DNA of 64,000 bases from an uncultured Gammaproteobacteria bacterium. GTDB lineage: Bacteria > Patescibacteriota > Microgenomatia > UBA8517. Position 1 is the stretch's first letter. Every line of letters begins with the position of its first letter. The position numbers and the translations under genes were made by a program. The stretch spans positions 5,983 to 69,982 of the forward strand of contig CAZBTH010000003.1 of assembly GCA_964494885.1 (NCBI GenBank). The letters are read 5' to 3'. Under the pieces are notes generated by a model, which saw nothing but the letters and a program-made list of their open reading frames with translations, did not search any database and was not told where the DNA came from. This document shows positions 854 to 62,303 of the stretch, piece after piece.

Positions 854-2632
854 ATGTTTAAAATCTTTAAACGATTCTACTGGTTCATTTGGAAGCACAA
901 GTGGTGGTTCATCCTAGCGCAGCTGGCCACGACTATTGCTATCGTGCTTGAACTCATTACCCCCTATTTCTTTAAACTTTTTGTGGAAACTCTTCAAAGG
1001 AATGACTTGAATCATCTCTATACATTAATTCTGATCTTCATTGGAGTTTTGTTCGGCAGTCTTGTTTTTGACAATCTAAAGTTTTTTCTTGGCGACATTG
1101 TCTCGGTAGACACTGCCATAGACATAAGAACAACTATATTTAAATATATTCAGGAATTGGACTTCTCGTTTCATGCCGGAAAAAGCACTGGTTCTTTGAT
1201 TAGCGCTTTCAAGCGCGGTGACAACGCCTTTTGGGGACTTTACGAGCGCCTAAACCAAAGGATGTGGCAAATTTTTATCGGTTTTTTTGTAATGGGTTAC
1301 TTTTTTCTAAAAATCGATCCACGATTCATACTTATTTTCTTTATTTCTTTCCTCCTAACACTTGTGGCAACAAAATATCTGGCCGGTATGAACATCCGTA
1401 CGCGTGAAGAGTTTAACGAATACGAAGATAAAATATCCGGCATTATCACTGATAATTTGATCAATTACGAAACGGTAAAACTTTTTGCCAAGGAAAACTG
1501 GGAAATTGAACGGCTAAGGTCTACATTTCGTGATTGGAAAAAATTTCTTTGGAGGCATTTTTATACTTATAGGTATATTGACATGAGTGTTGGAAGTTTA
1601 ATCAACCTCTCCATATTCATTGTTTTGGCCTTTTCCCTGAACTTAATTAAGGCCGGTCAAATAGGCATCGGAGATTTTATCCTTGTTGTATCTTACGTAA
1701 ATTTGTTCTTTCCCAAGCTTTTTGATCTGATTTATGGTTTGCGCGAAATCTCAACAAGTTATGCTGACATCAAAAAATACTTTGATTTGCTGGATTACGA
1801 AATAGATGTAAAAGACCCAATAAGCCCTGTAAGCAAAGATCACGTCAACGGCATAATTGAATTTAAAGATGTCTCTTTTACCTACGGCGGGCGAAGCAAA
1901 AATGCGATTAATGGTGTTGATTTGGAGATTAAAAAAGGACAATCTGTGGCTTTGGTTGGTAGAAGCGGCAGTGGTAAAACTACGTTGGCAAAACTTTTAA
2001 TGAGATTCTACGATATCGATTCCGGAGAAATAACAATCGATGGAGTAAATATTAAAGATTTTACAAAAAGTACTCTAAGGGGATTTGTCGGAGTTGTTCC
2101 CCAAGAGCCCATTCTTTTCAATAATACTATCGCCTACAACATTGGCTACGGCTTCGGACAGGGTCGTCGGACAGGGTCGGACCCTGTCAAACAACCCGCC
2201 CGGAAAGGGTCCGACCTTTCAGAAATTAGAGCAGCTTCAAAACTTGCCAATATTGATGACTTTATTGAAAGCCTAAAGAAAAAATACGATACAGAGGTCG
2301 GCGAACGCGGGGTTAAACTTTCCGGAGGCCAAAAGCAGCGCTTGGCCATAGCGCGGATGATATTAAGCGACCCCGATATTGTTGTATTTGATGAGGCTAC
2401 AAGCCATCTTGATAGCGAGAGCGAAAAACTTATTCAGGATGCGTTTTGGAAAGCCAGAAAGGGAAAAACTACCATCATCATCGCCCACCGTTTGTCTACT
2501 ATCATGAGGGCGGACAAAATTGTGGTTATGGAACATGGGCATATTAAAGAAACAGGAACTCACGAGGGATTGGTGAAGAAAAAAGACAGTTTGTATTCCC
2601 ACTTCTGGAATTTACAAATTAAATTGGACTGA
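854..2632 (+). CDS. ABC transporter permease/ATP-binding protein (MsbA-like exporter) with an in-frame palindromic insertion
   Basis: N-terminal TM domain. Walker A GRSGSGKTT, signature LSGGQKQR, Walker B IVVFDEAT, H-loop IIIAHRL. The track start at 827 is TTG; the ATG at 854 (MFKIFKRF) is more likely. Confidence 0.9.
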   Translation: MFKIFKRFYWFIWKHKWWFILAQLATTIAIVLELITPYFFKLFVETLQRNDLNHLYTLILIFIGVLFGSLVFDNLKFFLGDIVSVDTAIDIRTTIFKYIQELDFSFHAGKSTGSLISAFKRGDNAFWGLYERLNQRMWQIFIGFFVMGYFFLKIDPRFILIFFISFLLTLVATKYLAGMNIRTREEFNEYEDKISGIITDNLINYETVKLFAKENWEIERLRSTFRDWKKFLWRHFYTYRYIDMSVGSLINLSIFIVLAFSLNLIKAGQIGIGDFILVVSYVNLFFPKLFDLIYGLREISTSYADIKKYFDLLDYEIDVKDPISPVSKDHVNGIIEFKDVSFTYGGRSKNAINGVDLEIKKGQSVALVGRSGSGKTTLAKLLMRFYDIDSGEITIDGVNIKDFTKSTLRGFVGVVPQEPILFNNTIAYNIGYGFGQGRRTGSDPVKQPARKGSDLSEIRAASKLANIDDFIESLKKKYDTEVGERGVKLSGGQKQRLAIARMILSDPDIVVFDEATSHLDSESEKLIQDAFWKARKGKTTIIIAHRLSTIMRADKIVVMEHGHIKETGTHEGLVKKKDSLYSHFWNLQIKLD

Positions 2633-5650: not shown

Positions 5651-6448
5651 TTAGCATGTCTTCCTTGAATCTGCTTCATCCTTCGCTACAAGCAGCGAGG
5701 TATTTGCAGGTTCTCGAATAAAATATTTATCGATGAATTCACCCATTACTTTATTTACTTCCGCAACCACTGCCTTGTGACGGCGGTAGCCATGATCTGA
5801 ATTTAACTCGTGGAGCATTTTTGGCCCAGGAACAGATTCATATATTTCTTCAATTTCGCGGGGGGTGTAATACCTGTCGTCAGTCCCCGAGAATAATAAT
5901 TTTGGTTTCTTGCATTCTTTCAGAATAGCCAGAGTATCAAATTTTTCTCCGTCCTTAAAATATTCAATAGGTAGAGCAAATTCTTTCTGTTCCTTGGTCC
6001 TTTCACTTCCAGGTGGAATATCCCTATGCTCAATCTGAACTCCATCTTTGACAGACTTGGGAGGTGTAGGCGGTTCATACGAAGACATTACCAAAATAAT
6101 ACCGATTACATTTGGATTAACACTTGCCAATATAGCCACATTTCCACCTCGAGAGTGGCCAAGTAACAAAGTTGGCTTATTTCCATAATATTCAATTAAT
6201 TCATTAACGGCTTTAAGATAGTTGGTAGTTGTAAAAAGTTCGGTTCCTCCCGGACTTTCCCAGGTGCCGGGCGGGTCAATCGCCACAGTATAAAACCCTT
6301 TGCCGTCTAAATATTCCTGGTGGCTAACAAAATTGGCGTAATCTTTGGTATCAATCTTACCGGGAAGCATAAGAACGACTTTTGAAGCGTTTTTGTTCCC
6401 TTTTTCGTTTACCGCCAGTGTAAATGATTTAGTATTAACCAAATTCAT
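5651..6448 (-). CDS. Alpha/beta-hydrolase fold protein (dienelactone hydrolase/esterase-like)
   Basis: Nucleophile elbow LLLGHSRGG. Size and pattern fit an alpha/beta hydrolase. Confidence 0.6.
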   Translation of the reverse strand: MNLVNTKSFTLAVNEKGNKNASKVVLMLPGKIDTKDYANFVSHQEYLDGKGFYTVAIDPPGTWESPGGTELFTTTNYLKAVNELIEYYGNKPTLLLGHSRGGNVAILASVNPNVIGIILVMSSYEPPTPPKSVKDGVQIEHRDIPPGSERTKEQKEFALPIEYFKDGEKFDTLAILKECKKPKLLFSGTDDRYYTPREIEEIYESVPGPKMLHELNSDHGYRRHKAVVAEVNKVMGEFIDKYFIREPANTSLLVAKDEADSRKTC

Positions 6449-6493
6449 ACTTGAAGTATACCAAAGTCTGAAAGATGTGTTACAGCGCCTTGC

Positions 6494-6511
6494 AAGGTCG
6501 GACCTTTAAAG
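6494..6511. repeat. REP-like palindrome (upstream flank of the RAYT gene)
   Basis: AAGGTCGGACCTTTAAAG, a half-site-plus-core copy of the TTTAAAGGTCGGACCTTTAAAG palindrome. Confidence 0.8.
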
Positions 6512-6527
6512 ATAATATTTAATTAAC

Positions 6528-7217
6528 ATGCCCACAAAAAACTCCATTAAAATTTACGCAGAAAACACTATCTATCATGTTTACAATCGCGGCGTGGAAA
6601 AAAGAGATATCTTTCTAGACGAACAGGATTATAAAGTTTTTCTTGGATACCTAAAAGAATACTTGTCCCCACCCCCAAGTCTTGAAGATAGAATAAAAAA
6701 ATCTTTTACCTTAAAAGGTCGGACCTTTAAAGGTGTATCAAGACAGCCCAATAATTACTGCGAAAAAATTGATCTTTTGGCGTATTGTCTAATGCCCAAT
6801 CATTTTCACTTCATATTAAAACAAAATGATGACAAGAACACTTTGAAGGAATTTATGCGATCCCTACTTACAAGGTATTCAGTATATTTCAATAAAAAAT
6901 ATGAGCGTGTCGGATCGTTATTCCAAGGTAAATATAAAGCGATTATCGTAATGGACGAAGTCTATCTACTCCATCTGTCGAGATATATTCACATAAATCC
7001 TTATGAGATAACCAAAGATCTTGTAAACGCATATTCTTCTTATGCCGAATATTTAGGCATTAGGCACACAGATTGGATAAAACCAAAGCTTATACTTTCC
7101 TATTTTACCAATCAAAAAACGACCCCCGAATTTACAGCAATCAATACTTATAAAAGTTTCGTAGAAAATTATTTAAAAGATAATTCGAACATATTGGAAG
7201 GTCTAAGATTAGAGTAG
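6528..7217 (+). CDS. IS200/IS605-family Y1 (HuH) transposase, REP-associated tyrosine transposase (RAYT)-like
   Basis: YHVYNRGVEKRDIF, HuH motif LMPNHFHFIL, catalytic-Tyr motif RYIHINPY (compare YIYINP in E. coli RAYT). Flanked by REP palindromes and carries one internal copy. Confidence 0.85.
   Translation: MPTKNSIKIYAENTIYHVYNRGVEKRDIFLDEQDYKVFLGYLKEYLSPPPSLEDRIKKSFTLKGRTFKGVSRQPNNYCEKIDLLAYCLMPNHFHFILKQNDDKNTLKEFMRSLLTRYSVYFNKKYERVGSLFQGKYKAIIVMDEVYLLHLSRYIHINPYEITKDLVNAYSSYAEYLGIRHTDWIKPKLILSYFTNQKTTPEFTAINTYKSFVENYLKDNSNILEGLRLE
6711..6735. repeat. REP-like palindrome inserted in frame inside the RAYT gene
   Basis: TTAAAAGGTCGGACCTTTAAAGGTG, translated as LKGRTFKGV. Confidence 0.8.
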
Positions 7218-7241
7218 CTTTAAAGGTCCGACCTTTAAAGC
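7217..7241. repeat. REP-like palindrome (downstream flank of the RAYT gene)
   Basis: GCTTTAAAGGTCCGACCTTTAAAGC, a 25-nt near-perfect palindrome that overlaps the RAYT stop codon. Confidence 0.85.
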
Positions 7242-7799
7242 TTAATCGGTTTCGTATTCAATCACGACCCAAGGAGTTGGTTTATTAAAGCCGCACATTC
7301 TTAAGACATCAATTGAAGCCTCCCTATGTTTACCGTTTTCCACTCTTGAACCCCGAATTGCGATTTCGTCATTCTTAAAAAGGTTTTCATATACCACCCT
7401 ATCATGTATCACCTGCCCTAATCCATATAAATATTGCGGAAGGTTGTCGGTATGTCTTTTCAATTCACTGACATCGTGGGTTTCTGAATATTCTTTGAAT
7501 TTATGTTCAAATTCTCCGTATTCAGGATAGCCTTTAGGCTTAATTGGGTTTTGCTCTCTTAGAAACTTTGCCGACATTAATTCACCCCACGCTTGAGTAT
7601 CAATAACTCCTTGGCTATTTACAACACCCAGCTGATTAAGATACTGATTTAATAGCTGTCTAACACCGGCAGCTGCAGCCGGATCTTCGTGGCTTTTCTC
7701 TACAAGCCATGCCCAAAGCTTATCAATTTCTTCTGCACGCGTTTCCGAAGAACGCCTCTCGAATTGCTCTCCTCCTCTACCGAATCCACCCATATCCAT
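7242..7799 (-). CDS. Hypothetical protein, probably translationally coupled to the upstream UppS gene
   Basis: Its start lies 3 nt after the UppS stop. No recognisable motif. Confidence 0.45.
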   Translation of the reverse strand: MDMGGFGRGGEQFERRSSETRAEEIDKLWAWLVEKSHEDPAAAAGVRQLLNQYLNQLGVVNSQGVIDTQAWGELMSAKFLREQNPIKPKGYPEYGEFEHKFKEYSETHDVSELKRHTDNLPQYLYGLGQVIHDRVVYENLFKNDEIAIRGSRVENGKHREASIDVLRMCGFNKPTPWVVIEYETD

Positions 7800-7801
7800 T
7801 T

Positions 7802-9076
7802 TTATGCAACCCTCTCCTTCAGGGCTCTGTAATATTTTTGAAGATAATCTTCTGCTTTAGCCCAATGAGCTTCCCCCGCCCCAGCTATGGCCAAATTGCG
7901 CTCCACTGCGGCCAAGATTCGGAGGTGAGCCGCTTTTGCGGCCTGAAAAAGCGATATGCGATAGACCTCGGCATAAAGTTCTTTGGCAGTTTGCTCCGCC
8001 TCAAAAGAAGATTCCACAGAGTCCTTGCCGGCAAGCTCCCTATTCATTTTGACCTCAAGTGAGGCAACAAGTTCCGGCTCAAATGCCAGTTTGAGTTCGT
8101 CTTTCACTAATTTGTAAAATTTCTTCATTTTTCCTTTCGCCTCTATGAACTTACTTGCTTTTTCATAAACAAAGGCCTCTATTAATAGTTTTGCTGCTTG
8201 AATCGCCAGAGTCTTACTTAACCCATACTGCTCTTTGATGTGTTTCATAACATAGTCGCGGATGCGGACGCCTTCGGGAATGTTTTTGAGGCGCCACCAA
8301 GAAAGCTCCAAGCGGGCGGCGATTTCCGGATTGAATTTTAAGTGCTCCTCGGCGTCATTTCCACCAAACCTGCGCCTGCGGCGGCTAAAATCCAAAACTG
8401 CATCCTTCAATTTTTCGGGTCCAAAGTCAGGAAAATGATCGTTTTCGAAATAGTATTCGGTATAGGGTGACTGCCAAAGCAACATTCCGCTGGTTCTTTG
8501 TTCCCCGCTGGTTCTTATCATCAAATCCACATATGGATAAGGCTGGCCTTTTGTATCGAGATATTTTTCAAACAACTTTTTGTCAATACTCCCGGCAGGG
8601 ACTTTGTCTATCACCATTTTTTGAACCGCGCGGATGATTTCATCGTGTCCGCCGTAATCTATGGCAATATTCATAATGTATTTTTTATTGTCTTTTGTTT
8701 CTATTTCCGCTTTGGCAATTTTTGATAGAAGGAATTTGGGCAGACGGTCTTTTCGCCCCAGGTGAACTATTTTTACGTTGTCCTTTTTGGCATCTGACAA
8801 GTATTGATTTATCATTCTTGAATACAGCTTCATCAGATAGCCTATTTCCTCTGTGGTTCTGTCCCAGTTCTCGGTAGAGAATCCCCACAGGGTAACCGTA
8901 TGAATTCCCCAACTTCTCGACGACTTGCAAATTTCAACAGCAGTGTCAAACCCTTTTTTGTGCCCCTGAAGGGTGTTTAGCCCCCTGGCCCTTGCCCATC
9001 TGCGGTTGCCGTCGGGAATGATGGCAATATGATTTGGAACAACGGTGTCTTTGGGGAGAATTAGATTATTTGACAT
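7802..9076 (-). CDS. uppS: Undecaprenyl-diphosphate synthase (cis-prenyltransferase) with a C-terminal extension of about 190 aa
   Basis: HIAIIPDGNRRWA, plus GH..G and ENW motifs in the first 230 aa. An extra alpha-helical C-terminal domain follows. Confidence 0.85.
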   Translation of the reverse strand: MSNNLILPKDTVVPNHIAIIPDGNRRWARARGLNTLQGHKKGFDTAVEICKSSRSWGIHTVTLWGFSTENWDRTTEEIGYLMKLYSRMINQYLSDAKKDNVKIVHLGRKDRLPKFLLSKIAKAEIETKDNKKYIMNIAIDYGGHDEIIRAVQKMVIDKVPAGSIDKKLFEKYLDTKGQPYPYVDLMIRTSGEQRTSGMLLWQSPYTEYYFENDHFPDFGPEKLKDAVLDFSRRRRRFGGNDAEEHLKFNPEIAARLELSWWRLKNIPEGVRIRDYVMKHIKEQYGLSKTLAIQAAKLLIEAFVYEKASKFIEAKGKMKKFYKLVKDELKLAFEPELVASLEVKMNRELAGKDSVESSFEAEQTAKELYAEVYRISLFQAAKAAHLRILAAVERNLAIAGAGEAHWAKAEDYLQKYYRALKERVA

Positions 9077-9743
9077 GTGATGTGATTATATCAAGAATAT
9101 TGTCGCGATTCACAATTTGCCAGCCGTTTTCCATTGCAATTGCCTGGAGCTTCTCATTAGGCTCCATTACGAATGCGTGCTCAACGAGTTCCAACATATC
9201 AGCGTCATTTTCTGAATCCCCAACTGCAAAAGATCCGCCTTTGCCGTATTTTGAAACCAAATCTGCGACAATTCCTTTATTTCCCGCCAGACTTCGTTCA
9301 ACTCTTCCTGTAAATTTACCATCTTCTATCTCCGCAACCGAGGAAACATGATTTGGAACCCCAAAAATTTTCCCTAAAGCTTCGCACATAAACTGAAAGT
9401 TCGTGGTAACCAAAAAAATGTCATATGTATCTTTAATCTTAGAAGTAAGTTTTTCGAAATACGGAAAAAATTTGGCTTTGTTTTTTGATAGGTATTTAAA
9501 AGTGTCATCAAGCATTATTTTATAATCCACTTCTTTCAAGGCATTTGCTGAAACCTTGAGCATTGAATTTGCGGCGTCGGTATAGTTTTGATTGCCATTT
9601 TTGTATTCGTTAAGTTCCCAGAGTATTTTGTCCCAAGTCCCTTTGGCAATAAATCCTCTTTTTTCTTGGTCTTGAACCTGATCAAAAATGGAGTGACCTT
9701 CGTATATAACGCCGTCAATATCAAAAAGCGCTAGTTTTTTCAT
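9066..9743 (-). CDS. HAD-superfamily hydrolase (phosphoserine-phosphatase-like, subfamily IB)
   Basis: Motif I LFDIDGVI and motif IV GDSENDADML. Confidence 0.75.
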   Translation of the reverse strand: MKKLALFDIDGVIYEGHSIFDQVQDQEKRGFIAKGTWDKILWELNEYKNGNQNYTDAANSMLKVSANALKEVDYKIMLDDTFKYLSKNKAKFFPYFEKLTSKIKDTYDIFLVTTNFQFMCEALGKIFGVPNHVSSVAEIEDGKFTGRVERSLAGNKGIVADLVSKYGKGGSFAVGDSENDADMLELVEHAFVMEPNEKLQAIAMENGWQIVNRDNILDIITSHVK

Positions 9744-9839: not shown

Positions 9840-9869
9840 TTGTTCTATTGTTCTAGAACAGTAGAACAA
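9840..9869. promoter_or_regulatory. Operator-like 17-bp inverted repeat between divergent genes
   Basis: TTGTTCTATTGTTCTAG / CTAGAACAGTAGAACAA, one mismatch, centred on CTAG. Confidence 0.5.
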
Positions 9870-10090
9870 ACAAATAGGATTTGGGGATTTTAGAGAGTTT
9901 CGAGATCATTTTCCTCTCTTTCGGTCGGTTCGTGTATTACAGGTGCCCCTCTCCCCTCGTGCCCGCTTCCAATTGTGCCCAACTCGTCATCAAGCTGGTC
10001 TTCTGAGTTTTGTTCTTGTCTTTCTGTCATATTGAATCACCCCCAATCGTATCGTGCACTAGGTTAGTCTTCTTTGGTATAATTCACCCC

Positions 10091-10318
10091 ATGGCACTTG
10101 CAGAATTTAATAAGTATGAGGATCCGGAAGTCCGTGCCTGGGCTATGATTTGGAAAGTAGCGCCTCAAATGGAAAGAGTCCGTCCTTTGACTGAAGGAGA
10201 CCAAGAAACTATCGATGAAATATCAAAACTCAGAACCGAAGGAAAATTGACAGATGCTCAAAAAAAGGTATTAGATACGATTGGGATGAATGTCTCAATC
10301 GACTACGACGGCTTTTAA
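10091..10318 (+). CDS. Small hypothetical protein (75 aa)
   Basis: MALAEFNKYEDPEV... The upstream part of the 10010 ORF is probably not coding. Confidence 0.35.
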   Translation: MALAEFNKYEDPEVRAWAMIWKVAPQMERVRPLTEGDQETIDEISKLRTEGKLTDAQKKVLDTIGMNVSIDYDGF

Positions 10319-11106
10319 CATATGCGCGTACCCGTTGTCTTTTTGCCCATTACTGCATTTTTGAGACTATTTTTTTCGTTTCCATTTACAATTGAGGTCG
10401 AAATATCATATTTTTTGGCTAAAGAAAGCGCCTGTTCAACTTTATGGAGCATTCCCCCTGTCACATCTACACTTTTTGCCCCAATAATTGAAGACTTTAA
10501 TTGATTAAAATTTTTATTCGTTATTACCGGAATAATGTTTCCTTTTTCGTCGTGAACTCCATTAACATCAGTGACGTAAATCATGCGAATTTTATAGTCT
10601 CTGACTAATTTCTTAGCAACGATAGAAAGTACTTTTTCTGTGGAAAAAATCGTGCAACCTTGCCCCCTGTCCATTATTACGTCTCCATATATGACAGGGT
10701 GCGACCCTGTCAGCAAAGCTTGTTTGATCGGGTCTAAATATGATTTATTAGATACTTGTGTATCAGAAATAATGAAACTTGCGGGAGAAAACGGAAAAAC
10801 CGGGAGATTTCCTTTGATGAAAATCTTTACTAAAATGTCATTTAGAGTTCTCGCCGCGTCTTCTACTATCGTCATTCCCATCAAACTCTTAGAATTGATA
10901 AGTCCTTTTTTTGTTTGATATTTTTTGGCGGGAGTATGTGCAAAAGACCCGGCGCCATGACCGATAACAATCGCGCAGGGAAACACTTTTAGTGCCGCTT
11001 TTATTTCCCCGCCTAATCTTTTTATATTTGCCGGTCGCGCAGTAAACTCCTTGGACTTATCCGTAATTACGCTCCCTCCAAGTTTTATAAATATTAGTTC
11101 TTTCAT
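10315..11106 (-). CDS. Amino-acid-kinase-family protein, probably isopentenyl phosphate kinase
   Basis: IKLGGSVITDK, HGAGSFAH, YGDV, DVTGG and NGN motifs match IPK/FomA-type kinases. Carries the palindrome GACAGGGTGCGACCCTGTC in frame at 10694-10712. Confidence 0.7.
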   Translation of the reverse strand: MKELIFIKLGGSVITDKSKEFTARPANIKRLGGEIKAALKVFPCAIVIGHGAGSFAHTPAKKYQTKKGLINSKSLMGMTIVEDAARTLNDILVKIFIKGNLPVFPFSPASFIISDTQVSNKSYLDPIKQALLTGSHPVIYGDVIMDRGQGCTIFSTEKVLSIVAKKLVRDYKIRMIYVTDVNGVHDEKGNIIPVITNKNFNQLKSSIIGAKSVDVTGGMLHKVEQALSLAKKYDISTSIVNGNEKNSLKNAVMGKKTTGTRIC

Positions 11107-12328: not shown

Positions 12329-13129
12329 TTAAAGGTGCGTCAGTTTATACCAGAAAATTTTGACGGGGAAAATTGGGAAGGCATTAAAGACACGTTTGAA
12401 TCGATCCGGTTCTGTAATAAGTCGATAGAACCACTCCAGACCTGCTTTTTCCATCCATATCGGAGGTAATTTGGAAACACCCGCAATATAGCGAAAAGTT
12501 CCACCTACTGCCATTGCTCCCTTGATTTTAAGTTTTGAAAGATTATTGTGAATCCAAATTTCCTGTTTAGGATTGCCAAATGCCACAAACAAAAGATCTG
12601 GAGCAAATTTGTTTATCTTGTCAATTGCATCTTTCTGTAATCTTTCGTCTACTTCCGTCTCAGGTTGTCCTTTTTGGTTCAATTTTGGTCCCGCTGCAGT
12701 TTCAATTTTTAATTTTGAATTTTTAATTTTTAACTTTGAAGCTGCTTTAGCAGCTTCATCCCCCAATCCACCGAGAAGAAACACTTTCCAATGTCTTTTT
12801 GCCGCCAGTTTGATCAAACCCTCAAAAAGTTTTCTGCCAGGAATGACATTTAAGCTCTTTCCAAAGAGGAATCTTGAAGCATAGGCAAGTCCCACACCAT
12901 CCGGTACTGCATAGTCTGCCGAATTGAGAGCAATCTTAAGCTCTTTGTTCTTCTGAGCCATTAAAACAAGCTCCGGGTTGGGTGTCACAATACTGAATTT
13001 TGTATTACAGGATATATTTTCTTCCACTCCTGTTAGCAATAAGTTAACCGAACTGCTAAGTATATTAATTCCAAGGATTTGTCCGTATTTCCGACCTTTT
13101 TTGTCTTTTTTTACTCTGATTTTGTTCAT
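12329..13129 (-). CDS. WecB/TagA/CpsF-family glycosyltransferase with an in-frame low-complexity insertion
   Basis: VTPNPELV, ADYAVPDGVG, LLGG, GNPKQEIW and AMAVGGTFRY are TagA-family motifs. The KLKIKNSKLKIE insert is encoded by a tandem DNA repeat at 12700-12745. Confidence 0.75.
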   Translation of the reverse strand: MNKIRVKKDKKGRKYGQILGINILSSSVNLLLTGVEENISCNTKFSIVTPNPELVLMAQKNKELKIALNSADYAVPDGVGLAYASRFLFGKSLNVIPGRKLFEGLIKLAAKRHWKVFLLGGLGDEAAKAASKLKIKNSKLKIETAAGPKLNQKGQPETEVDERLQKDAIDKINKFAPDLLFVAFGNPKQEIWIHNNLSKLKIKGAMAVGGTFRYIAGVSKLPPIWMEKAGLEWFYRLITEPDRFKRVFNAFPIFPVKIFWYKLTHL

Positions 13130-17722: not shown

Positions 17723-19009
17723 CTATATCAAGAGCTTTTTATACTTCTCCCCGTCCTTGTATGGCCCTATTATGGCCAAATTCAAGTGATCTTTAACAAA
17801 TATCTTTTTAGCTTCGTTTACGACTTCTTCTTTTGTCACTTTACCGATTCTCTTGTAAAGTTCGTCCGGAGTTAAAACCTCTTTCAAAAACATCACCTGT
17901 TCTGCAAAAAAGTCGCCTGCTGCTTGAGTATCTTCCAAGGAAAGCGCAATATGGCCCTTAAGATATTCTTTTGTTTTTTCCAACTCCTTGGGGGAAATCG
18001 GAAACTTGCCGTCCGCCAGACCGTAGAGTTGATCCAGAATAACTTTAATTGCTTCTTCGCTCTTGCCCGTATCCACACCTGCATAAAACCCTGTATATCC
18101 TACTTCGTTAAATTTATCTCCTGCCGGTTTAACAGCGTATGCCAATCCACGACGTTCCCTGACTTCTATAAACAACCTTGAACTCATAGGCCCTGCCAGT
18201 ATTGTGGAAAGTACACTTTGGGCAAATCGTCCCGAATACCCCCTGCCCTCGCTTAAAAAACCAAGGATTATATGAGCCTGTTCAACCTTTTTGATTTTAA
18301 GTTTAAATTTAGGACTTTTTTGTTCCGCTTTAAAGGTCTGACCTTTAAAGTCACTTATAGTTTTTCCACCTAGTGGGTGGAGAGAAGTAAAATATTTATT
18401 TACTAATTCAAGGGCTTCTTTTTCTGTAATACCGCCAGAAACTGAAACAAACATATTTTCGGGATAGTAATGTCGTCCTCTGTAAAGTTCGAAGTCGCTT
18501 TTAGTTATTCGTTTTACGCTCTTTGCTTCCCCACCTATATCCCACCCCAATGAACTACCTTTAAAAATTAGCCCCTCAAAAACATCGTGAATTTTTACCA
18601 TTGGAGTATCCTCGTACATCGCAAGTTCCTGAATAATCGTCCCTTTTTCGCGTTCTATCTCCTCGGGTTTTAGAAGCGGAGAAAGAACCATGTCACTTAA
18701 TACATCCATTGCGGTTTCGACACTACCTGAACGGGATTTTATATAAAAATTTGTCCAATCCTTACTTGTTGCCGCATTAAACTCTCCTCCTATCGAGTCC
18801 ACCGCCTCACTAATTGCCTTAGCGGAAGGTCTTTTTGCACTACCCTTAAAAACCATGTGTTCTAAGAAGTGGCTGATACCGTTGATTCGTTTGTCCTCAA
18901 ATCTTGACCCGGTTTTGACCCACACAGTTACGGTTACCGACTCCAACCCCGGCATGGGGACAGTTACAACAGTCAAACCGCTTTTTAGTTTATGAAGTTT
19001 GTATTCCAT
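17723..19009 (-). CDS. M16-family zinc peptidase (pitrilysin/insulinase-like) with an in-frame REP insertion
   Basis: Inverted zinc motif HFLEHMVFKGS (HxxEH). The likely start is MEYKLHKL at 19009. Confidence 0.8.
   Translation of the reverse strand: MEYKLHKLKSGLTVVTVPMPGLESVTVTVWVKTGSRFEDKRINGISHFLEHMVFKGSAKRPSAKAISEAVDSIGGEFNAATSKDWTNFYIKSRSGSVETAMDVLSDMVLSPLLKPEEIEREKGTIIQELAMYEDTPMVKIHDVFEGLIFKGSSLGWDIGGEAKSVKRITKSDFELYRGRHYYPENMFVSVSGGITEKEALELVNKYFTSLHPLGGKTISDFKGQTFKAEQKSPKFKLKIKKVEQAHIILGFLSEGRGYSGRFAQSVLSTILAGPMSSRLFIEVRERRGLAYAVKPAGDKFNEVGYTGFYAGVDTGKSEEAIKVILDQLYGLADGKFPISPKELEKTKEYLKGHIALSLEDTQAAGDFFAEQVMFLKEVLTPDELYKRIGKVTKEEVVNEAKKIFVKDHLNLAIIGPYKDGEKYKKLLI
18328..18350. repeat. 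REP-like palindrome inside the M16 peptidase coding sequence
   Basis: CTTTAAAGGTCTGACCTTTAAAG, translated in frame as FKGQTFKA. Confidence 0.85.
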
Positions 19010-19117
19010 GAAGCTAGTATATAGTATATTGTATGTAGTATGTAGGGGGAGCGAAAACCATGAAACTAGGATATAGTACATTGTATATGGGGAAACATAG
19101 GCACAAGGACAAAAGAC

Positions 19118-21849: not shown

Positions 21850-22743
21850 ATGTTAAAGAAGATCAAAATCAGTGAACGAGGAGATGGTCGGATAATATTC
21901 GTCCTCCTCCTCGCGATCGTGGTAATCGTTATTCTCCTGCTGTTCGGAGGGGGAGCCCAATTAGTGGCTATCAACTCTGTGTCGCGGCTCCTGGAGTGCC
22001 AAGACATGGGAATTCTGGGAGTAAGACTGCAAAATTCATACTCGCCCAAACAGGAGTATGCAATGGAGCACCAATTCCCTGATGACGTCGCTTCTGGGCA
22101 GGTTAGATACATAAGCATTCTGGGTGATGACATCACCATCCCCAAAGAAGGCTGGGGAGACATCTACGCAAGACGGGAAGACTTTTCCTATTGCGTCGAC
22201 GACCTAACCGACGACAAAAAGAAAAGGACTTGCATTGACAACTACTACGGCAATCCCGATGCCGGATTTGCCACAGTTGGCATTGGTGGAACCATTTGGA
22301 AACCCACAGATTATGGCCAACTGAGCGGGCAAAAAATGTACGTCAGCGTGGCATTCATCACCGGCCTGACGGATTTTGGGTTCCCTATCGGAGCAATCGT
22401 CATTAATGACGATTACAATCCGGACTTTTCACCCCAGGCGTATACCCCTGACTTTCAGGCCTCCCTCGCATGCAAGATGCTTGTTTGGGAAGGTACTGAT
22501 AAATCAGAGATCAATTGCAGGGACTTTGGATACTTGCCTTACACGAATAAAGTAATTCAAGGGCCCTCGATAATCAACGGAGCTGGATACTATATCGTCG
22601 AAGGGTGCTCTAATGGGATTTGGGTAAAACCGTATTCAGAAATGCAGCCGGGGGCTTTAGACGGCCTTTCCCAAAAAACGTTGGAATCGATTGTCGAGAT
22701 GTTCGGACAAATCACCGCTCCGGCTCCGGCTTCGACACCCTAA
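21850..22743 (+). CDS. Signal-anchored extracytoplasmic Cys-containing protein (island gene 3)
   Basis: AAGGAGG SD. N-terminal TM anchor followed by a soluble domain with several Cys. Confidence 0.6.
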   Translation: MLKKIKISERGDGRIIFVLLLAIVVIVILLLFGGGAQLVAINSVSRLLECQDMGILGVRLQNSYSPKQEYAMEHQFPDDVASGQVRYISILGDDITIPKEGWGDIYARREDFSYCVDDLTDDKKKRTCIDNYYGNPDAGFATVGIGGTIWKPTDYGQLSGQKMYVSVAFITGLTDFGFPIGAIVINDDYNPDFSPQAYTPDFQASLACKMLVWEGTDKSEINCRDFGYLPYTNKVIQGPSIINGAGYYIVEGCSNGIWVKPYSEMQPGALDGLSQKTLESIVEMFGQITAPAPASTP

Positions 22744-26195: not shown

Positions 26196-28025
26196 TCACA
26201 TTCGTTCGGGCGCTTGTATCCCAAGAAGTTGAAGGCCATTCTTAAGTATCTGCCCTGTTGCAGCTGTAAGCGTCACTCTGAATGCACTTATACTCTTCCA
26301 CTCTTCTGCTTTTCTACTCTCATCCTCCAAAATTCTAAATTTATTGTAAAAAGTATTATATTTCGAAGCCAAATCATATAAATAGTTACACAAAAGATTG
26401 GGTGAGTAAGTTTTGGCTGCAGTCGCTATTACCTCAGTAAATCGGGATAAAGCTCTTAGTAACGACAATTCTTCTTCAGTTTCCATTTTCCATTTGCCAT
26501 TTATCATTTCATTTGTAGATTTGCTTATTTGCTTATTTGTAGATTTAAGAAGTACGCTGTTGCATCGAGCAACTGTATATTGAAGATATGGGCCCGAGTT
26601 GCCTTCCAAAGACAGGGAACTTTCAAAATCGAACGCAATGTCCCCGCCTATCCCTTGCTTTAAAAATGCATATTTAACGGCTCCAAGGGCAACCTGTTCT
26701 GCAATTTCATCTTCCATATTGTGTGCATCAAGAAGTTTTTTCTTAGCTTCGTCCAAAACCCATTCCCCCCTAATAATTTTTCCGGTTCTTGAACTCATCT
26801 TTCCTTCGGGAAGACGGACCATCCCGTGCCCTATGTGTGTTGTAGCCTCGGCAAGATCCTTTTTGTACATAGATAGGGCTTTAAGGACAACGTCAAAATA
26901 GGCATCAATCTCGTTACCGGTCACGATAATCGATTTGTCATATGGAAAATCTTTGTATTTGGCAACAGCATTGCCGAAATCCTTGGCTTCGTATGTGGGC
27001 AAATTAAGGGCATTTATAAAAACCCTATTATGCAAACCGTATTTTTCTCCAGGAAAAATTACAGCGCCACGCTCACCCTTCTCAAAAATTCCTTTGGCCA
27101 AACCGTCCAAAACCATTCCATAGCCAAATTCTCCGGTTCTGCTTTCCGGATAATAGCCGTCAAACTTCATCCCAACCCTTTTATAAATTGATTCGAAATA
27201 TTCCAAACTCCATGCCCTACCAATTTCATAAATATTTTTGATTTCAGAATAAGAATACTTGCCGTCTTTTTTGATATATTGATCGTAGTTCACCTGTGGA
27301 GATTCGTTGAATTCCGGCAAAACCACTTCCTGTGCAGCCTTGAAAATTAAAAAGTTAAGCTCTTTCATATCTTCTACTGCTTTCGGATCTTCTTCAAAAG
27401 CAGTTGCACCTTTTGCGTATGCTTGTCCAAAATACTCGATTCTTTCTTTTAGAGGCTTTTCGGTAAGGTCTTTAATATCAACTTTGTCCTCTGAAAACTT
27501 AAACATTAAACCCCAAATCGCCTTGGCAGCATGCATGCCAACATCGCCAAAATAATCGGCTCGCCATACGTCTCCGCCAATCGCGCTTTGCAAGCGGCTA
27601 ATCGATTCACCAACCGTATTTGTATATAAGTGGCCTATATGAAACTCTTTGAATGGGTTGGGATCGGTATATTCAACAACTACTTTTTTACCCTTAAGAA
27701 AACCGCTCTTTCCATAACTTTCCCCTTCTTTCTGTATCTTCCCAAGCTCGTTGACAAGGGTCCCCCCTGTCAACCAAAAATTTATAAAACCCGGGCCGGC
27801 GACTTCAATTTTTTCAATAAATTTGGATAATTCGGGAGACTGGGATAGTTTGATTTTGATTTCTTCAGCCAATTCCCTTGGATTTTTGCCCTCGCTTTTT
27901 GCCATGATTAGCGCAATATTGCACGAGTAGTCGCCGAATGTTTCGTTTTCGGGAAATTCCAAGCTGATTTCCTTTGCTTTGGTTACAGCTTCTAAAGCCG
28001 TTAGTATTTTAGTTCTAGTTTCCAT
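26196..28025 (-). CDS. argS: Arginine--tRNA ligase
   Basis: HIGH-class motif region and KMSSRTG (the KMSKS-like motif). C-terminus ...LLGIQAPERM. The likely start is METRTKIL at 28025. Confidence 0.9.
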   Translation of the reverse strand: METRTKILTALEAVTKAKEISLEFPENETFGDYSCNIALIMAKSEGKNPRELAEEIKIKLSQSPELSKFIEKIEVAGPGFINFWLTGGTLVNELGKIQKEGESYGKSGFLKGKKVVVEYTDPNPFKEFHIGHLYTNTVGESISRLQSAIGGDVWRADYFGDVGMHAAKAIWGLMFKFSEDKVDIKDLTEKPLKERIEYFGQAYAKGATAFEEDPKAVEDMKELNFLIFKAAQEVVLPEFNESPQVNYDQYIKKDGKYSYSEIKNIYEIGRAWSLEYFESIYKRVGMKFDGYYPESRTGEFGYGMVLDGLAKGIFEKGERGAVIFPGEKYGLHNRVFINALNLPTYEAKDFGNAVAKYKDFPYDKSIIVTGNEIDAYFDVVLKALSMYKKDLAEATTHIGHGMVRLPEGKMSSRTGKIIRGEWVLDEAKKKLLDAHNMEDEIAEQVALGAVKYAFLKQGIGGDIAFDFESSLSLEGNSGPYLQYTVARCNSVLLKSTNKQISKSTNEMINGKWKMETEEELSLLRALSRFTEVIATAAKTYSPNLLCNYLYDLASKYNTFYNKFRILEDESRKAEEWKSISAFRVTLTAATGQILKNGLQLLGIQAPERM

Positions 28026-28059
28026 ATAAATTTTATAACTTTTATAATAGTTATAATTG

Positions 28060-28611
28060 TTATACACTGCTTTTTTTATACTCCATCCTCTTTTTAAACA
28101 AGTTCTCTCTAAAACCACCCTCTTTAATAAATTTCTCCTCGGTCCAACGAAGTTTTTGATCCAAAAGTTGGTTTGTTTGGTTTATTAAACAAAGCATGGC
28201 GTTGGCTGCAGCCTCGGGGTTCCCAATATAACTTTTATAAAGGTTATAATTTTTATAATTGTTATACGCAAGCCGTCGGACAGCTTGCGCCTCAGAAGAG
28301 CCCACTTCCCAAACCTTTAACCCTTTTTGTCTTAAGTAATCTTGATAGTCATTTAACAGTTCTTCTAAACTTCCTCTGGCAACACCTAAAAGTTTAATTC
28401 TGCCTTCCAGGCTTTTTTGCAAATATCCTTCAGCTATATTCTGTTTGCCGCTTCTTGCCGCCTGCTCCATTTGGTCTTTGGTGCGAGATTTGTAATTGAT
28501 ATAGAGTTTGCAAAATTCAACAGTAAAATCGTAAACAATTTCGCTTTGAATATAGAAAGGTAACGTTTTGTAACCCTTATTTTCCATTTTTACTATTTTA
28601 TTATAACCCAT
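28060..28611 (-). CDS. Four-helix-bundle protein (TIGR02436 family, long form; paralog of 16114)
   Basis: TVEFCKLYINYKSRTKDQMEQAARSGKQNIAEG aligns with the 16114 ORF. Confidence 0.6.
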   Translation of the reverse strand: MGYNKIVKMENKGYKTLPFYIQSEIVYDFTVEFCKLYINYKSRTKDQMEQAARSGKQNIAEGYLQKSLEGRIKLLGVARGSLEELLNDYQDYLRQKGLKVWEVGSSEAQAVRRLAYNNYKNYNLYKSYIGNPEAAANAMLCLINQTNQLLDQKLRWTEEKFIKEGGFRENLFKKRMEYKKSSV

Positions 28612-34788: not shown

Positions 34789-34866
34789 ATAAAAATGTAA
34801 AATGGCAATGGAAAATTTAAAATTTCGATATGTCATTTTGATATTTAATATTTGATATTTTATTTA
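34789..34866. repeat. AT-rich 80-nt element (copy B) in the comEA-comEC intergenic region
   Basis: See copy A; about 85% identical over roughly 80 nt. Confidence 0.75.
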
Positions 34867-35493
34867 ATATACACTTACCAAATCTTTTATCTTGTTATAC
34901 GCAGAACTCTTCAAAACACCTTTTGACAGCAATTCTTCAACGTTTGAGTACGGTCTGTGTTCAATTATGTTTTGGCCATAAACTTGGCCAATTCCAGGCA
35001 ATGAGTCGAGCTCCTGAAGGGTCGCTGTATTGATATTGACAAGGGGGCCCCTTGTCACCCCTAAAACGGGTTGATCTACTTTGATATCATCATAAGTTTT
35101 AGCAGTCAAGTTGTCTGACTGCTGATTGGCGTTGGGTATATACACCTTTTGTCCGTCTGTTAATTTTGCCGCGCGGTTTAGATATTTATCCGTCCAAACT
35201 CTGTCCGCGTTAACCGAAAACCCGCCGGAAACAACCAAAAGATCCTCAACGCGACTACCACCGGAAAGTTTATAAACACCCGGTTTAACTACTTCTCCAG
35301 CAATTTCCACTGTTAAGTCCTGACGAATGTCGAAACCTTCGTTATTATCAAGAATTTCAACCTTTGTTGATGGAGACGCCAGTCCACTTTTAAAAAAGAA
35401 AATCCCCGCGCCGGTAGCGATCAACCCCCCGAGAAGTATTAAAAGAGGATAACGAAAACGGTTTAACATTTCATCTATATTGAAGCTGTGCAT
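34864..35493 (-). CDS. comEA: Competence protein ComEA (SLBB plus helix-hairpin-helix DNA-binding)
   Basis: HhH motif INTATLQELDSLPGIGQVYGQNIIEHR. N-terminal TM anchor. Confidence 0.8.
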   Translation of the reverse strand: MHSFNIDEMLNRFRYPLLILLGGLIATGAGIFFFKSGLASPSTKVEILDNNEGFDIRQDLTVEIAGEVVKPGVYKLSGGSRVEDLLVVSGGFSVNADRVWTDKYLNRAAKLTDGQKVYIPNANQQSDNLTAKTYDDIKVDQPVLGVTRGPLVNINTATLQELDSLPGIGQVYGQNIIEHRPYSNVEELLSKGVLKSSAYNKIKDLVSVY

Positions 35494-55151: not shown

Positions 55152-55835
55152 ATGTATAAATTTGAAAAGGCTCTGTTTTTTTACAGTATTTTGGCCATAA
55201 CCGTATTTTTTATTTCATTTGGTGTTTTCTCGCCGTCTCCACTAAACTTCATAAGTGGCGTTTTGATGCTCCCTAGCACTTTTTACTTCTGGATAAGGAT
55301 GACTTATCCTGAGCACACAGCCCCGGACAGATGGACCGTAAGGTTCCTTTCGGTTTTGACGCTTCTATCACTTTTTGGCATTTTCGGATTTTACCTACTA
55401 TCAAAAGGCTTACCACAAATCCAAATCCTTACAGTTGAAAATAAGCGTCTCACGACCCAAAACGCAGATCTACTAAACAAACTGGAAAGAACAGACTCTG
55501 AAATGACTAAACTTAAGCAAAATATCGCTACTCCTTCGGCAACCATAAAAGGAGTTGACACGAATGACATAACCGTTGCAGACCTGGTCGCTGGGTCCCC
55601 GACCACAGGCTTAGGACAAAGAATAACAGGCATTACAGGCCAATCTTCAATTGACGTCTACCAATCCACATCTCTTTCCTCCACAAAAATCGGCGCGGTC
55701 GACGCCAACATCACATATCCATATGTAACAAAACAAGACGGTTGGTATAAAATAGTTATAGAAAGTCCAAAAGACCGCCTGCCTGCCGGCAGGCAGGGTT
55801 GGGTAAACGAAAGTCAGGTAATCGAGGTGCAATAA
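55152..55835 (+). CDS. Membrane protein with a C-terminal bacterial SH3-like domain
   Basis: TM helices, then ...DGWYKIVIESP...GWVNESQVIEV, an SH3b-like domain. Confidence 0.45.
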   Translation: MYKFEKALFFYSILAITVFFISFGVFSPSPLNFISGVLMLPSTFYFWIRMTYPEHTAPDRWTVRFLSVLTLLSLFGIFGFYLLSKGLPQIQILTVENKRLTTQNADLLNKLERTDSEMTKLKQNIATPSATIKGVDTNDITVADLVAGSPTTGLGQRITGITGQSSIDVYQSTSLSSTKIGAVDANITYPYVTKQDGWYKIVIESPKDRLPAGRQGWVNESQVIEVQ

Positions 55836-62244: not shown

Positions 62245-62303
62245 CCCTACAGCATATTGACAAGTCGTGGACTAAACACTATAATAATTATAGTGTTTGG
62301 ACT

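Follow-up and report, generated by a model that had tools for sequence, protein, structure and literature searches.

A palindrome within the isopentenyl phosphate kinase gene

The question raised by this locus is how a perfect DNA palindrome came to lie within the reading frame of a conserved enzyme gene. The DNA analysed, referred to throughout as the window, is a stretch of 64,000 nucleotides (positions 5,983 to 69,982 of contig CAZBTH010000003.1, assembly GCA_964494885.1), which is labelled as originating from an uncultured Gammaproteobacteria bacterium and is placed by GTDB in the Patescibacteriota, also referred to as the Candidate Phyla Radiation (CPR), while the palindrome is located in the gene for isopentenyl phosphate kinase (IPK; 10315-11106, minus strand, 263 amino acids). 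Based on the comparisons described below, it is considered probable that this palindrome is a hairpin similar to repetitive extragenic palindromic (REP) elements, belonging to a CPR-wide system which involves a protein similar to the REP-associated tyrosine transposases (RAYT) and which resides largely inside genes, and that the copy in the IPK gene represents a length-neutral replacement.

Positions 10692-10712 form a perfect palindrome of the type 9+3+9 (TGACAGGGT-GCG-ACCCTGTCA) with a core, GACAGGGTGCGACCCTGTC, at 10693-10711. The original prediction, made from the sequence of the window alone, had recognized this palindrome correctly, though its coordinates (10694-10712) were placed one base too far to the right. 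On the minus strand the element reads CTG ACA GGG TCG CAC CCT GTC and encodes L T G S H P V (residues 132-139, L-T-G-S-H-P-V-(I)). The same 8-bp arms recur in a second copy at 2170-2188, within the open reading frame (ORF) of an ABC exporter (827-2632), where the coding strand ACA GGG TCG GAC CCT GTC specifies T G S D P V; the identity of the arms and the shared reading frame relative to the palindrome, both of which had been pointed out in the original prediction, can be read directly from the two coding strands. The core pattern occurs twice in the window, where 0.00 occurrences are expected, and was absent from all of 100 shuffled versions that preserved the dinucleotides, which bears out the earlier view that such shared arms are unlikely to be due to chance. 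A search for TGACAGGG-N5-CCCTGTCA allowing up to three mismatches retrieved four sites (2169, 10692, 27752 and 35037) against 0.13 expected, here designated family A.

As single-stranded DNA the IPK copy is predicted to fold with -8.9 kcal/mol (z = -4.0 relative to shuffles). No T-run follows the stem at the IPK, ABC, ComEA-like or transposase-flanking palindromes, and an intrinsic terminator was ruled out for these GC-rich stems. Rfam and tRNA scans of the window returned two tRNAs only and nothing at the palindromes.

Replacement rather than insertion in IPK

The original prediction had explained the palindrome as a segment inserted into the IPK gene, to be revealed by alignment around the YGDV motif. 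The IPK ORF matches Pfam AA_kinase with 98.8 bits and passes the NCBIfam model IPPK_Arch with 182.5 bits against a cut-off of 120, its residues 6-262 covering positions 2-259 of the 259 positions of the latter profile. The best matches in the PDB are archaeal IPKs, of which 8u0k, 3k4o and 7lnt align around the motif, through ‘alltgshPViyGDv’, without a gap, and the region is equally ungapped relative to 29 homologues, whose family consensus is A-L-x-I-G-x-I-P-V-V-Y-G-D-V. No inserted segment is found relative to either the solved IPKs or the 29 homologues, and no residues are added: the palindrome overlays 21 bp which normally encode (E)-I-G-x-I-P-V and which now encode L-T-G-S-H-P-V, without additional codons. 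Because the profile match extends over the full length and the alignments are free of gaps across the motif, the IPK copy is, as judged from these alignments, a length-neutral replacement of 21 bp and not an insertion. The invariant Gly, Pro and Val residues are retained because the translation of the repeat, T-G-x-x-P-V, itself supplies them.

The genome is Woesebacteria-like (CPR), and the nearest named relatives are Candidatus Woesebacteria; synteny with the window is seen in Woesebacteria GW2011_GWB1_39_10 (LBVU01000002.1; loci L100, L119 and L026) and in CP066686.1 (L115). In all examined DNAs of IPK orthologues with up to 65% identity the corresponding sequence is AT-rich and non-palindromic (e.g. 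GAA ATT GGT TTA ATA CCG GTT), and the palindrome TGACAGGG-N5-CCCTGTCA is confined to the closest clade, comprising five lineages of 68-83% identity. The site reads TG ACA GGG TCG CAC CCT GTC A in the window and in GW2011 (L118, L119), TGACAGGG-GGGCA-CCCTGTCA in L115, TGACAGGG-TGCCT-CCCTGTCA in L154 and TGACAGGGTG-C-CACCCTGTCA in L121, where two loop changes have extended the stem to 10 bp. The codon preceding the palindrome always ends in TG in the bearers (CTG, ATG or TTG) and is GAA, GAG or GAT in the other orthologues. From this distribution the palindromic state appears to be derived, having arisen within a subclade of Woesebacteria. According to the original prediction, homologues with the same residues yet without the palindromic DNA would point to a coincidental hairpin; the distant homologues do possess G..PV without the palindrome, whereas the nearest ones share both the residues and the palindromic DNA, a combination at odds with a coincidental hairpin as well as with an insertion.

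The loops vary among the bearers (TCGCA, TGCCA, GGGCA and TGCCT), and the stem does not. Across four near-full-length orthologues, with a pairwise identity at four-fold degenerate sites of 38-59%, the four such sites of the stem codons ACA, GGG, CCT and GTC are all identical (4/4), as compared to 12 of the 59 outside the palindrome (rough P ~0.002). Because of this difference the IPK stem is interpreted, on comparative grounds, as constrained or homogenized at the nucleotide level with a freely varying loop, a pattern by which conserved hairpins are classically recognized.

A family of hairpins in CPR genomes

The hairpin family TGACAGGGTCNGACCCTGTCA is enriched in CPR genomes. A pattern scan of 596 Gb, in which each species was represented by one genome, retrieved at least 114 loci. 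By our own estimate the bare 16-base pattern would be expected about 140 times by chance in such an amount of DNA; the raw count, being close to this number, is therefore uninformative, and the composition of loops and flanks was used instead. Among the matches listed, CNG loops, which extend the dyad to TGACAGGGTC-N-GACCCTGTCA, occur in 33 of 65 copies at loci of CPR lineages (Woese-, Beckwith-, Gottesman-, Blackburn-, Shapiro- and Saccharibacteria) or of low-GC genomes labelled as gammaproteobacterial, and T...A flanks in 50 of these 65, as compared to 4/63 and 7/63, respectively, in all other taxa. Many of the hits outside CPR are probably random. The consensus of family A is (T)TGACAGGGTC-N-GACCCTGTCA(A), with sister variants that include TTTAAAGGTC-N-GACCTTTAAA.

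The genes for IPK, ComEA and a ComF-like protein of GW2011_GWB1_39_10 all contain one and the same 21-mer, TGACAGGGTCGCACCCTGTCA, with no difference even in the loop, and family copies in three more places bring the number to at least six. Since arm-to-arm correction cannot yield a shared loop, a loop common to several loci indicates copying between loci.

Intergenic space is scarce in CPR genomes, and protein-coding genes harbour about half of the copies: among the matches listed, 19 of 35 copies in CPR and 15 of 30 in gamma-labelled genomes are located in open frames with a length of 150 codons or more. Of the in-ORF copies, 24/34 are read in the frame T-G-x-x-P-V, and one of the three frames through family A is closed by the TGA in TGACA. 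The original prediction that the element is tolerated only when it enters an open frame thus fits the frame usage of the intragenic copies, but not the word “only”, as about half of the copies at CPR loci lie outside long ORFs. Further host ORFs, identified by eye from their sequence, resemble IleRS, PheRS-beta, acetyl-CoA synthetase and TatD.

Low-GC metagenome-assembled genomes (MAGs) labelled as uncultured Gammaproteobacteria or Legionellales (a subset of L009-L114) also carry the 21-mer family, in many copies, and one of these (L046) contains a RAYT-like gene 50% identical to that of the window. Either horizontal spread or mislabelled bins would account for this occurrence; tblastn of window proteins against these MAGs did not find shared housekeeping genes. 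Copies in two competence genes, encoding ComEA (L026 at 6290; window 34864-35493) and a ComF-like phosphoribosyltransferase (L014 at 524, likewise of GW2011_GWB1_39_10), suggested DNA uptake sequences. Known uptake sequences occur roughly once per kb, and this idea was rejected in view of the few copies per 100 kb. The scan also caught unrelated repeat families (L017, L091, L092, L099 and L105 of the Planctomycetia MAG CAIYVX01, L019; L074), among them CCGGACAGGGTAGAACCCTGTCCCTAC, which occurs many times in one Planctomycetia MAG, and a tandem array of 174 bp in a MAG of the Oscillospiraceae.

A RAYT-like gene accompanied by its own palindromes

At a distance of 3 kb from the IPK gene lies a gene for a RAYT-like Y1 (HUH) transposase (6528-7217, plus strand, 229 amino acids). 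Its product matches Pfam Y1_Tnp (PF01797) with 36.2 bits against a cut-off of 23 and contains an HUH motif (HFH, residues 92-94) and a tyrosine motif (RYIHINP, residues 152-158), both of which are invariant in the alignment. At least 7935 homologues were retrieved, mostly from CPR assemblies and one of them named RayT by JGI; a phmmer search of the PDB with the protein gave no match. In neither sister genome (L100 and L115) does the syntenic position hold the gene; unrelated sequence separates the flanking genes there, and a clean empty site was not found. By tblastn, RAYT-like homologues were located beside palindrome matches in L046, L027, L006, L112, L076 and L101, and beside IPK in L125 and L128; in the latter two the gene, with its own palindromes, lies approximately 570 bp upstream of IPK (L125 445-1107, L128 1771-2433), which could be a recurrent neighbourhood or a hotspot.

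The palindromes around the window gene belong to a second family, B (TTTAAAGGTC-N-GACCTTTAAA), related to family A through a GGTC-N-GACC core and represented in the window by four close copies against 0.06 expected, in addition to variants in the ABC and LeuRS genes. One element (TTGCAAGGTCGGACCTTTAAA, 6490-6510) lies ~37 bp upstream of the RAYT start and overlaps a -35-like TTGCAA that is followed by 17 nt and TAATAT; a second (AAAGGTCGGACCTTT core, 6712-6730) is found inside the ORF, encoding T-L-K-G-R-T-F-K-G (residues 61-69); a third (AGCTTTAAAGGTC-C-GACCTTTAAAGCT, 7216-7242) spans the stop codon with 13-bp arms and is predicted to fold as single-stranded DNA with -10.8 kcal/mol (z = -5.3). 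The same element follows the stop codon in L151, whose RAYT is 73% identical.

This arrangement recurs. Like the window, 7-8 of the 11 other loci examined possess a cognate palindrome ~37 bp upstream of the start codon, and within the loci sharing the layout a palindrome is found at or just after the stop codon in nearly all cases, with an in-ORF palindrome at ~+180 in most and at ~+470 in three. RAYT genes flanked by cognate palindromes, which also lie in intergenic DNA, are those of the window, L046, L027, L128, L125, L006, L112 and L151, and in part that of L152. From locus to locus the sequence of the palindrome covaries with the gene: it is AAAGGTC-N-GACCTTT in the window and L151, TGACAGGGT...ACCCTGTCA in L046 and L006, TTGACAAGGTTAGACCTTGTCAA in L027, TTGACTAGGACTGTCCTAGTCAA in L128, TTGACAAGGCCAGGCCTTGTCAA in L125 and GTTAAGGTTCCGAACCTTAAC in L112. 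Homologous RAYT genes carry their own cognate palindrome at the same internal place as 6712-6730, and in the protein alignment the in-ORF copies coincide with loops rich in indels, where they encode, for example, TGFHPV or MTRPGLV. With respect to the element assumed by the original prediction to be mobile, both the IPK and ABC palindromes thus belong to one dispersed repeat family which is linked to a transposase-type gene.

Ten loci (window 6485-6530, L151, L046, L027, L128, L125, L006, L112, L152 and L153) share the upstream layout C-TTGACA/TTGCAA, 17 nt, TAATAT-like box, 5-9 nt and ATG, in which the repeat of 23 bp corresponds to the -35 hexamer plus spacer. A scan of 6400-7300 for promoters and terminators left TTGCAA-N17-TAATAT unflagged (8/12 matches, below threshold) and found no terminator at the palindromes; the putative promoter is proposed on the strength of its conserved layout across loci. 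The upstream palindrome suggests, from its position, autoregulation or a portable -35 element.

Other copies in the window

In the window, four copies of family A and four to six of family B were counted, and eight of ten copies reside inside ORFs. In the arginyl-tRNA synthetase (ArgRS) gene (26196-28118, minus strand) an imperfect family A copy, TTGACAAGGGTCCCCCCTGTCAA (27751-27773), encodes W-L-T-G-G-T-L-V-N; it is length-neutral relative to the sister locus L026, which has the non-palindromic FWLKTDVLVSNL (W-L-K-T-D-V-L-V-S), and is ungapped relative to human ArgRS. In the ComEA-like gene (34864-35493, minus strand) the family A variant TGACAAGGGG-G-CCCCTTGTCA (35037-35057) encodes V-T-R-G-P-L-V-N, where L026 (6290-6310) has TTGACAGGGTGCGACCCTGTCAC, encoding V-T-G-S-H-P-V-N at the same length; the two variants are distinguished by a pair of compensatory stem changes, one from A-T to G-C and one from G-C to T-A. 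The corresponding site in L062 specifies N-K-T-E-S-L-I-N without a palindrome, so relative to two close orthologues this copy, which sits in a variable linker, adds no residues. The family B copy CTTTAAAGGTC-T-GACCTTTAAAG (18328-18350) in an M16 peptidase gene (17723-19081, minus strand; D-F-K-G-Q-T-F-K-A) aligns without a gap to the non-palindromic TTTGAAATTTTGACTTATA of L115, the comparison with a distant homologue running across an indel-rich linker. Exact equal-length replacement is represented by at least two well-controlled cases, IPK and ArgRS.

Beyond the window, a family A copy in a GalE-like epimerase (L153, 19495-19513) encodes R-L-T-G-C-D-P-V-V-L-D-N-L, another ‘G..PV’ overlay. Judged by the usual strand motif of the family, G-x-x-V-V-V-L-D-N-L, it is apparently length-neutral.

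Two copies of the same families lie within true insertions. The nucleotide-binding domain of the ABC exporter contains an insertion (2155-2220, plus strand) encoding GQGRRTGSDPVKQPARKGSDLS and including the partial duplicate cggacagggtcgt (13 nt, 2155-2167), the family A element GGACAGGGTCGGACCCTGTCA (2169-2189), a spacer and the palindrome AAAGGGTCCGACCTTT (2204-2219), which amounts to ~13-16 extra residues relative to ABCB4 nucleotide-binding domains. The orthologue in L100 (3010-3075) is without the duplicate cggacagggtcgt and has one additional nucleotide relative to the window, the result being a compensated frameshift in which ~15 codons are read in different frames (GQGRRTGSDPVKQPARKGSDLSE vs GQGRTLSMSLSEKGPTLSE) while the gene stays open. 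In the LeuRS gene (35568-38126, minus strand) the family B-like ACCTTTAAAGGAT-G-ATCCTTTAAAGGT (36759-36785; T-F-K-G-S-S-F-K-G) lies in a 14-residue insertion (ASDTFKGSSFKGMA) relative to Thermus thermophilus LeuRS.

As a separate observation, about 15 distinct perfect hairpins with arms of at least 9 bp occur in the window against about 3 expected (rough estimate), not all of which are members of family A or B; examples are found at 216-246, 12737-12758, 22395-22414, 55778-55797 and 62274-62298. Overlapping inverted repeats of operator-like appearance (TGTTCTATTGTTCTAGAACAGTAGAACAA, 9841-9869) occupy part of the intergenic DNA that separates ORF 9066-9743 (minus strand) from ORF 10010-10318 (plus strand).

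Origin of the IPK copy

The reading regarded here as probable, that of a CPR-wide RAYT-like system, would imply the following course of events. The family hairpins would constitute the cognate DNA of a RAYT-like Y1/HUH transposase family which is very common in CPR, and would be recognized by the transposase as single-stranded DNA (predicted stability -8.9 to -10.8 kcal/mol). In a subclade of Woesebacteria a family 21-mer would have replaced the 21 bp encoding (E)-I-G-x-I-P-V in IPK at constant length, perhaps with another family member serving as the template for short-patch copying at a proto-site. A candidate proto-site is GGG-N6-CCTGTCA (an example being GAAATAGGGATAATACCTGTCA), in which the Gly and Pro-Val codons supply half of the repeat; this native half-repeat may either have acted as the proto-site or merely have made the replacement tolerable. 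Since its arrival, the stem would have been held constant through continued homogenization or selection while the loop drifted.

Such a replacement may have come about by patch conversion (possibly with the HUH enzyme cleaving twice and exchanging strands), by an insertion and a later deletion of the same length, or by intrastrand template switching; a templated process that preserves length is favoured by the shared loop and by the series of exact zero-length outcomes. In a more specific and decidedly tentative form, which we hold to be rather unlikely, the RAYT-like HUH system or another templated process would spread the hairpin by a length-preserving ‘cassette exchange’, in which ~21 bp at a loosely similar proto-site would be converted to the master sequence of the family.

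A number of observations weigh against the RAYT-like reading. We know of no Y1 transposase reaction in which a target segment is swapped for one of equal length. The transposase-like protein scores below the curated NCBIfam model REP_Tyr_transpos (NF047646; 45.6 bits against a cut-off of 80), and a profile built from seven RAYT-like sequences matched only ISDra2 TnpA in the PDB (E = 0.018). Close flanking palindromes are absent from 3-4 of 12 RAYT loci (L076, L101 and L153; L152 in part). The RAYT gene of the window is flanked by family B and not by family A, and the enzyme responsible for the family A copy in IPK, if still present, is encoded outside these 64 kb. Unlike classical REPs, the CPR repeats are perfectly symmetric and devoid of a conserved GTAG/CGTC tag, GTAG being confined to the window and L151, where it coincides with the stop codon of the RAYT gene, and flanks of T...A or TT...AA extend the dyad; furthermore, copy number appears to be low, with a handful per ~100 kb as compared to hundreds per genome. 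Finally, in a neighbour-joining tree calculated with the motif masked, the palindrome-free P0004/L155 and P0007 nest among the IPK bearers, so that either a single gain with two reversions or repeated gains would be required, between which the tree is too weak to discriminate.

An improbable alternative is that of a host cis-element selected for a function unrelated to transposition, for instance an operator or nucleoid-protein site in double-stranded DNA (TTGACA...TGTCAA) or an mRNA hairpin affecting decay or translation. The conservation of synonymous sites in the stem over deep divergence would be expected of such an element, its perfect dyad symmetry would suit a dimeric DNA binder, and the palindrome does overlie a -35-like hexamer and spacer upstream of the start codon in the ten RAYT loci. 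Yet the host genes are unrelated (IPK, ABC exporter, ArgRS, ComEA, ComF-like, epimerase, IleRS and others), copies are gained and lost between close relatives, covariation is with a transposase-type gene and not with any regulator, and, lacking a T-run, the element is not an intrinsic terminator.

A small mobile palindrome may instead have been inserted in frame into IPK, in the manner of Rickettsia palindromic elements (RPEs) or intragenic REPs, with a subsequent deletion of native codons of equal length. True insertions of the same families do exist in the window (~13-16 residues in the ABC exporter and 14 in LeuRS), such sites are subject to indels, as illustrated by the 13-nt duplication and 1-nt loss between sister genomes in the ABC gene, and a deletion could be guided by CCTGTCA, a microhomology that the repeat shares with the native codons for Pro-Val-Ile. 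This scenario is nevertheless judged quite unlikely: net length change is zero in IPK relative to every homologue, and likewise in ArgRS and ComEA, with the GalE-like copy of L153 apparently length-neutral relative to the presumed motif only; several independent and exact 21-for-21 outcomes are not readily obtained from two-step events, and the intermediate would have carried seven extra residues in a conserved enzyme core.

To a similar degree unlikely is an origin in place without any donor, whereby a quasi-palindrome formed by the Gly (GGG) and Pro-Val (CCT GTC A) codons became perfect during replication, through intrastrand template switching, and the likeness to the ABC copy is coincidental or convergent. 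The conserved (C)CC TGT CA in the codons for Pro-Val-Ile does have the left arm, TGACAGG(G), as its exact reverse complement, a single template switch would produce the changes E to L/M and I to T while length is kept, the compensatory double changes in ComEA fit arm-to-arm correction, and perfect hairpins are in excess across the window (~15 against ~3, as estimated above). What it leaves unexplained are the untemplated loop CGC, identical to that of other copies in one genome, the fact that the arms represent a family of many CPR genomes with non-random loops and flanks, and the link to RAYT-like genes. Lastly, chance resemblance or an assembly artefact, for which only the ~140 bare-pattern matches expected in 596 Gb (estimate) and the many probably random non-CPR matches could be cited, has a negligible probability, being refuted by the shuffles (0/100), by orthologue DNA, by the non-random loops and flanks in CPR and by the occurrence of the palindrome in independent NCBI, JGI, ENA and Logan assemblies.

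Relation to known repeat systems

The CPR system resembles the REP/REPIN and RAYT systems of Escherichia coli (TnpA-REP/YafM) and Pseudomonas (PMC2817692, PMC3116915, PMC3333891) in its short, GC-rich, dispersed hairpins, in a Y1/HUH gene with an HUH and a YIxxNP-type tyrosine motif that is flanked by cognate hairpins, and in a hairpin sequence which differs by lineage and tracks the gene; the REPtron layout (PMC3733652) is likewise encountered, here extending into the transposase gene itself. It differs in that copies appear to be few and about half of them are situated within ORFs instead of being extragenic, in that copies occur within the RAYT-like ORF and over its putative promoter, in that the protein falls below the NCBIfam RAYT cut-off, and in that several intragenic copies are length-neutral.

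Intragenic REPs have been described as insertions that add residues, 20-30 amino acids in the case of REP dimers (Di Nocera et al. 2013, PMC3733652), and that favour DNA-metabolism genes according to an earlier survey (PMC3733652). As with these and the RPEs, in-frame palindromes are found here in genes for functional proteins, including aminoacyl-tRNA synthetases, and the ABC and LeuRS copies of the window correspond to added residues in surface loops; RPE-1 insertions contribute more residues than the 20-30 amino acids of REP dimers. The IPK and ArgRS copies, unlike both, add none and sit on conserved motifs. A full-text literature search retrieved REP/RAYT systems, including intragenic REPs as insertions, and no report of such a system in CPR.

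With IS200/IS605 elements (ISDra2, PDB 2xm3) the system shares Pfam Y1_Tnp, hairpins near the element ends, which the IS200/IS605 enzyme recognizes, and a transposase promoter, putative here, overlapping an end; by contrast, the CPR proteins, of ~227 amino acids, have extra N- and C-terminal regions, the same palindrome is present on both sides in place of distinct left and right ends, and similarity to ISDra2 TnpA is marginal. The cyanobacterial palindrome HIP1, of 8 bp, occurs about once per kb, is linked to methyltransferases, arises in coding sequence by replacement and not by insertion, and is kept at orthologous positions. Replacement and orthologous retention are alike in the present element, which at 21-23 bp is longer, is rare and is linked to a Y1 transposase-like gene. 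The system is further set apart from REP/RAYT by the perfect dyad symmetry without a tag, the mostly intragenic location, the copies inside the transposase gene and the equal-length replacement on conserved motifs.

Implications

REP/RAYT systems are regarded as extragenic, and their intragenic cases have been described as insertions that decorate proteins. The large and undescribed CPR branch proposed here places its hairpins mostly where there is room, inside genes, including its own transposase gene and the conserved cores of enzymes that are essential, and the peptide T-G-S-[DH]-P-V recurring in unrelated CPR proteins is the mark of a DNA repeat and not a protein motif. If the cassette exchange suggested above were true, essential coding sequences would be edited in place, hairpins would persist for long in genes, and the repeat would spread in a mode distinct from insertion. 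If equal-length replacement reflects the copying mechanism, the long-open question of how REPs are copied would become directly testable, with substrates, enzyme candidates and proto-sites all defined. Selfish or domesticated DNA signals can, in streamlined genomes, dictate residues within conserved motifs, as is seen in IPK, where T, S and H stand in place of I, x and I.

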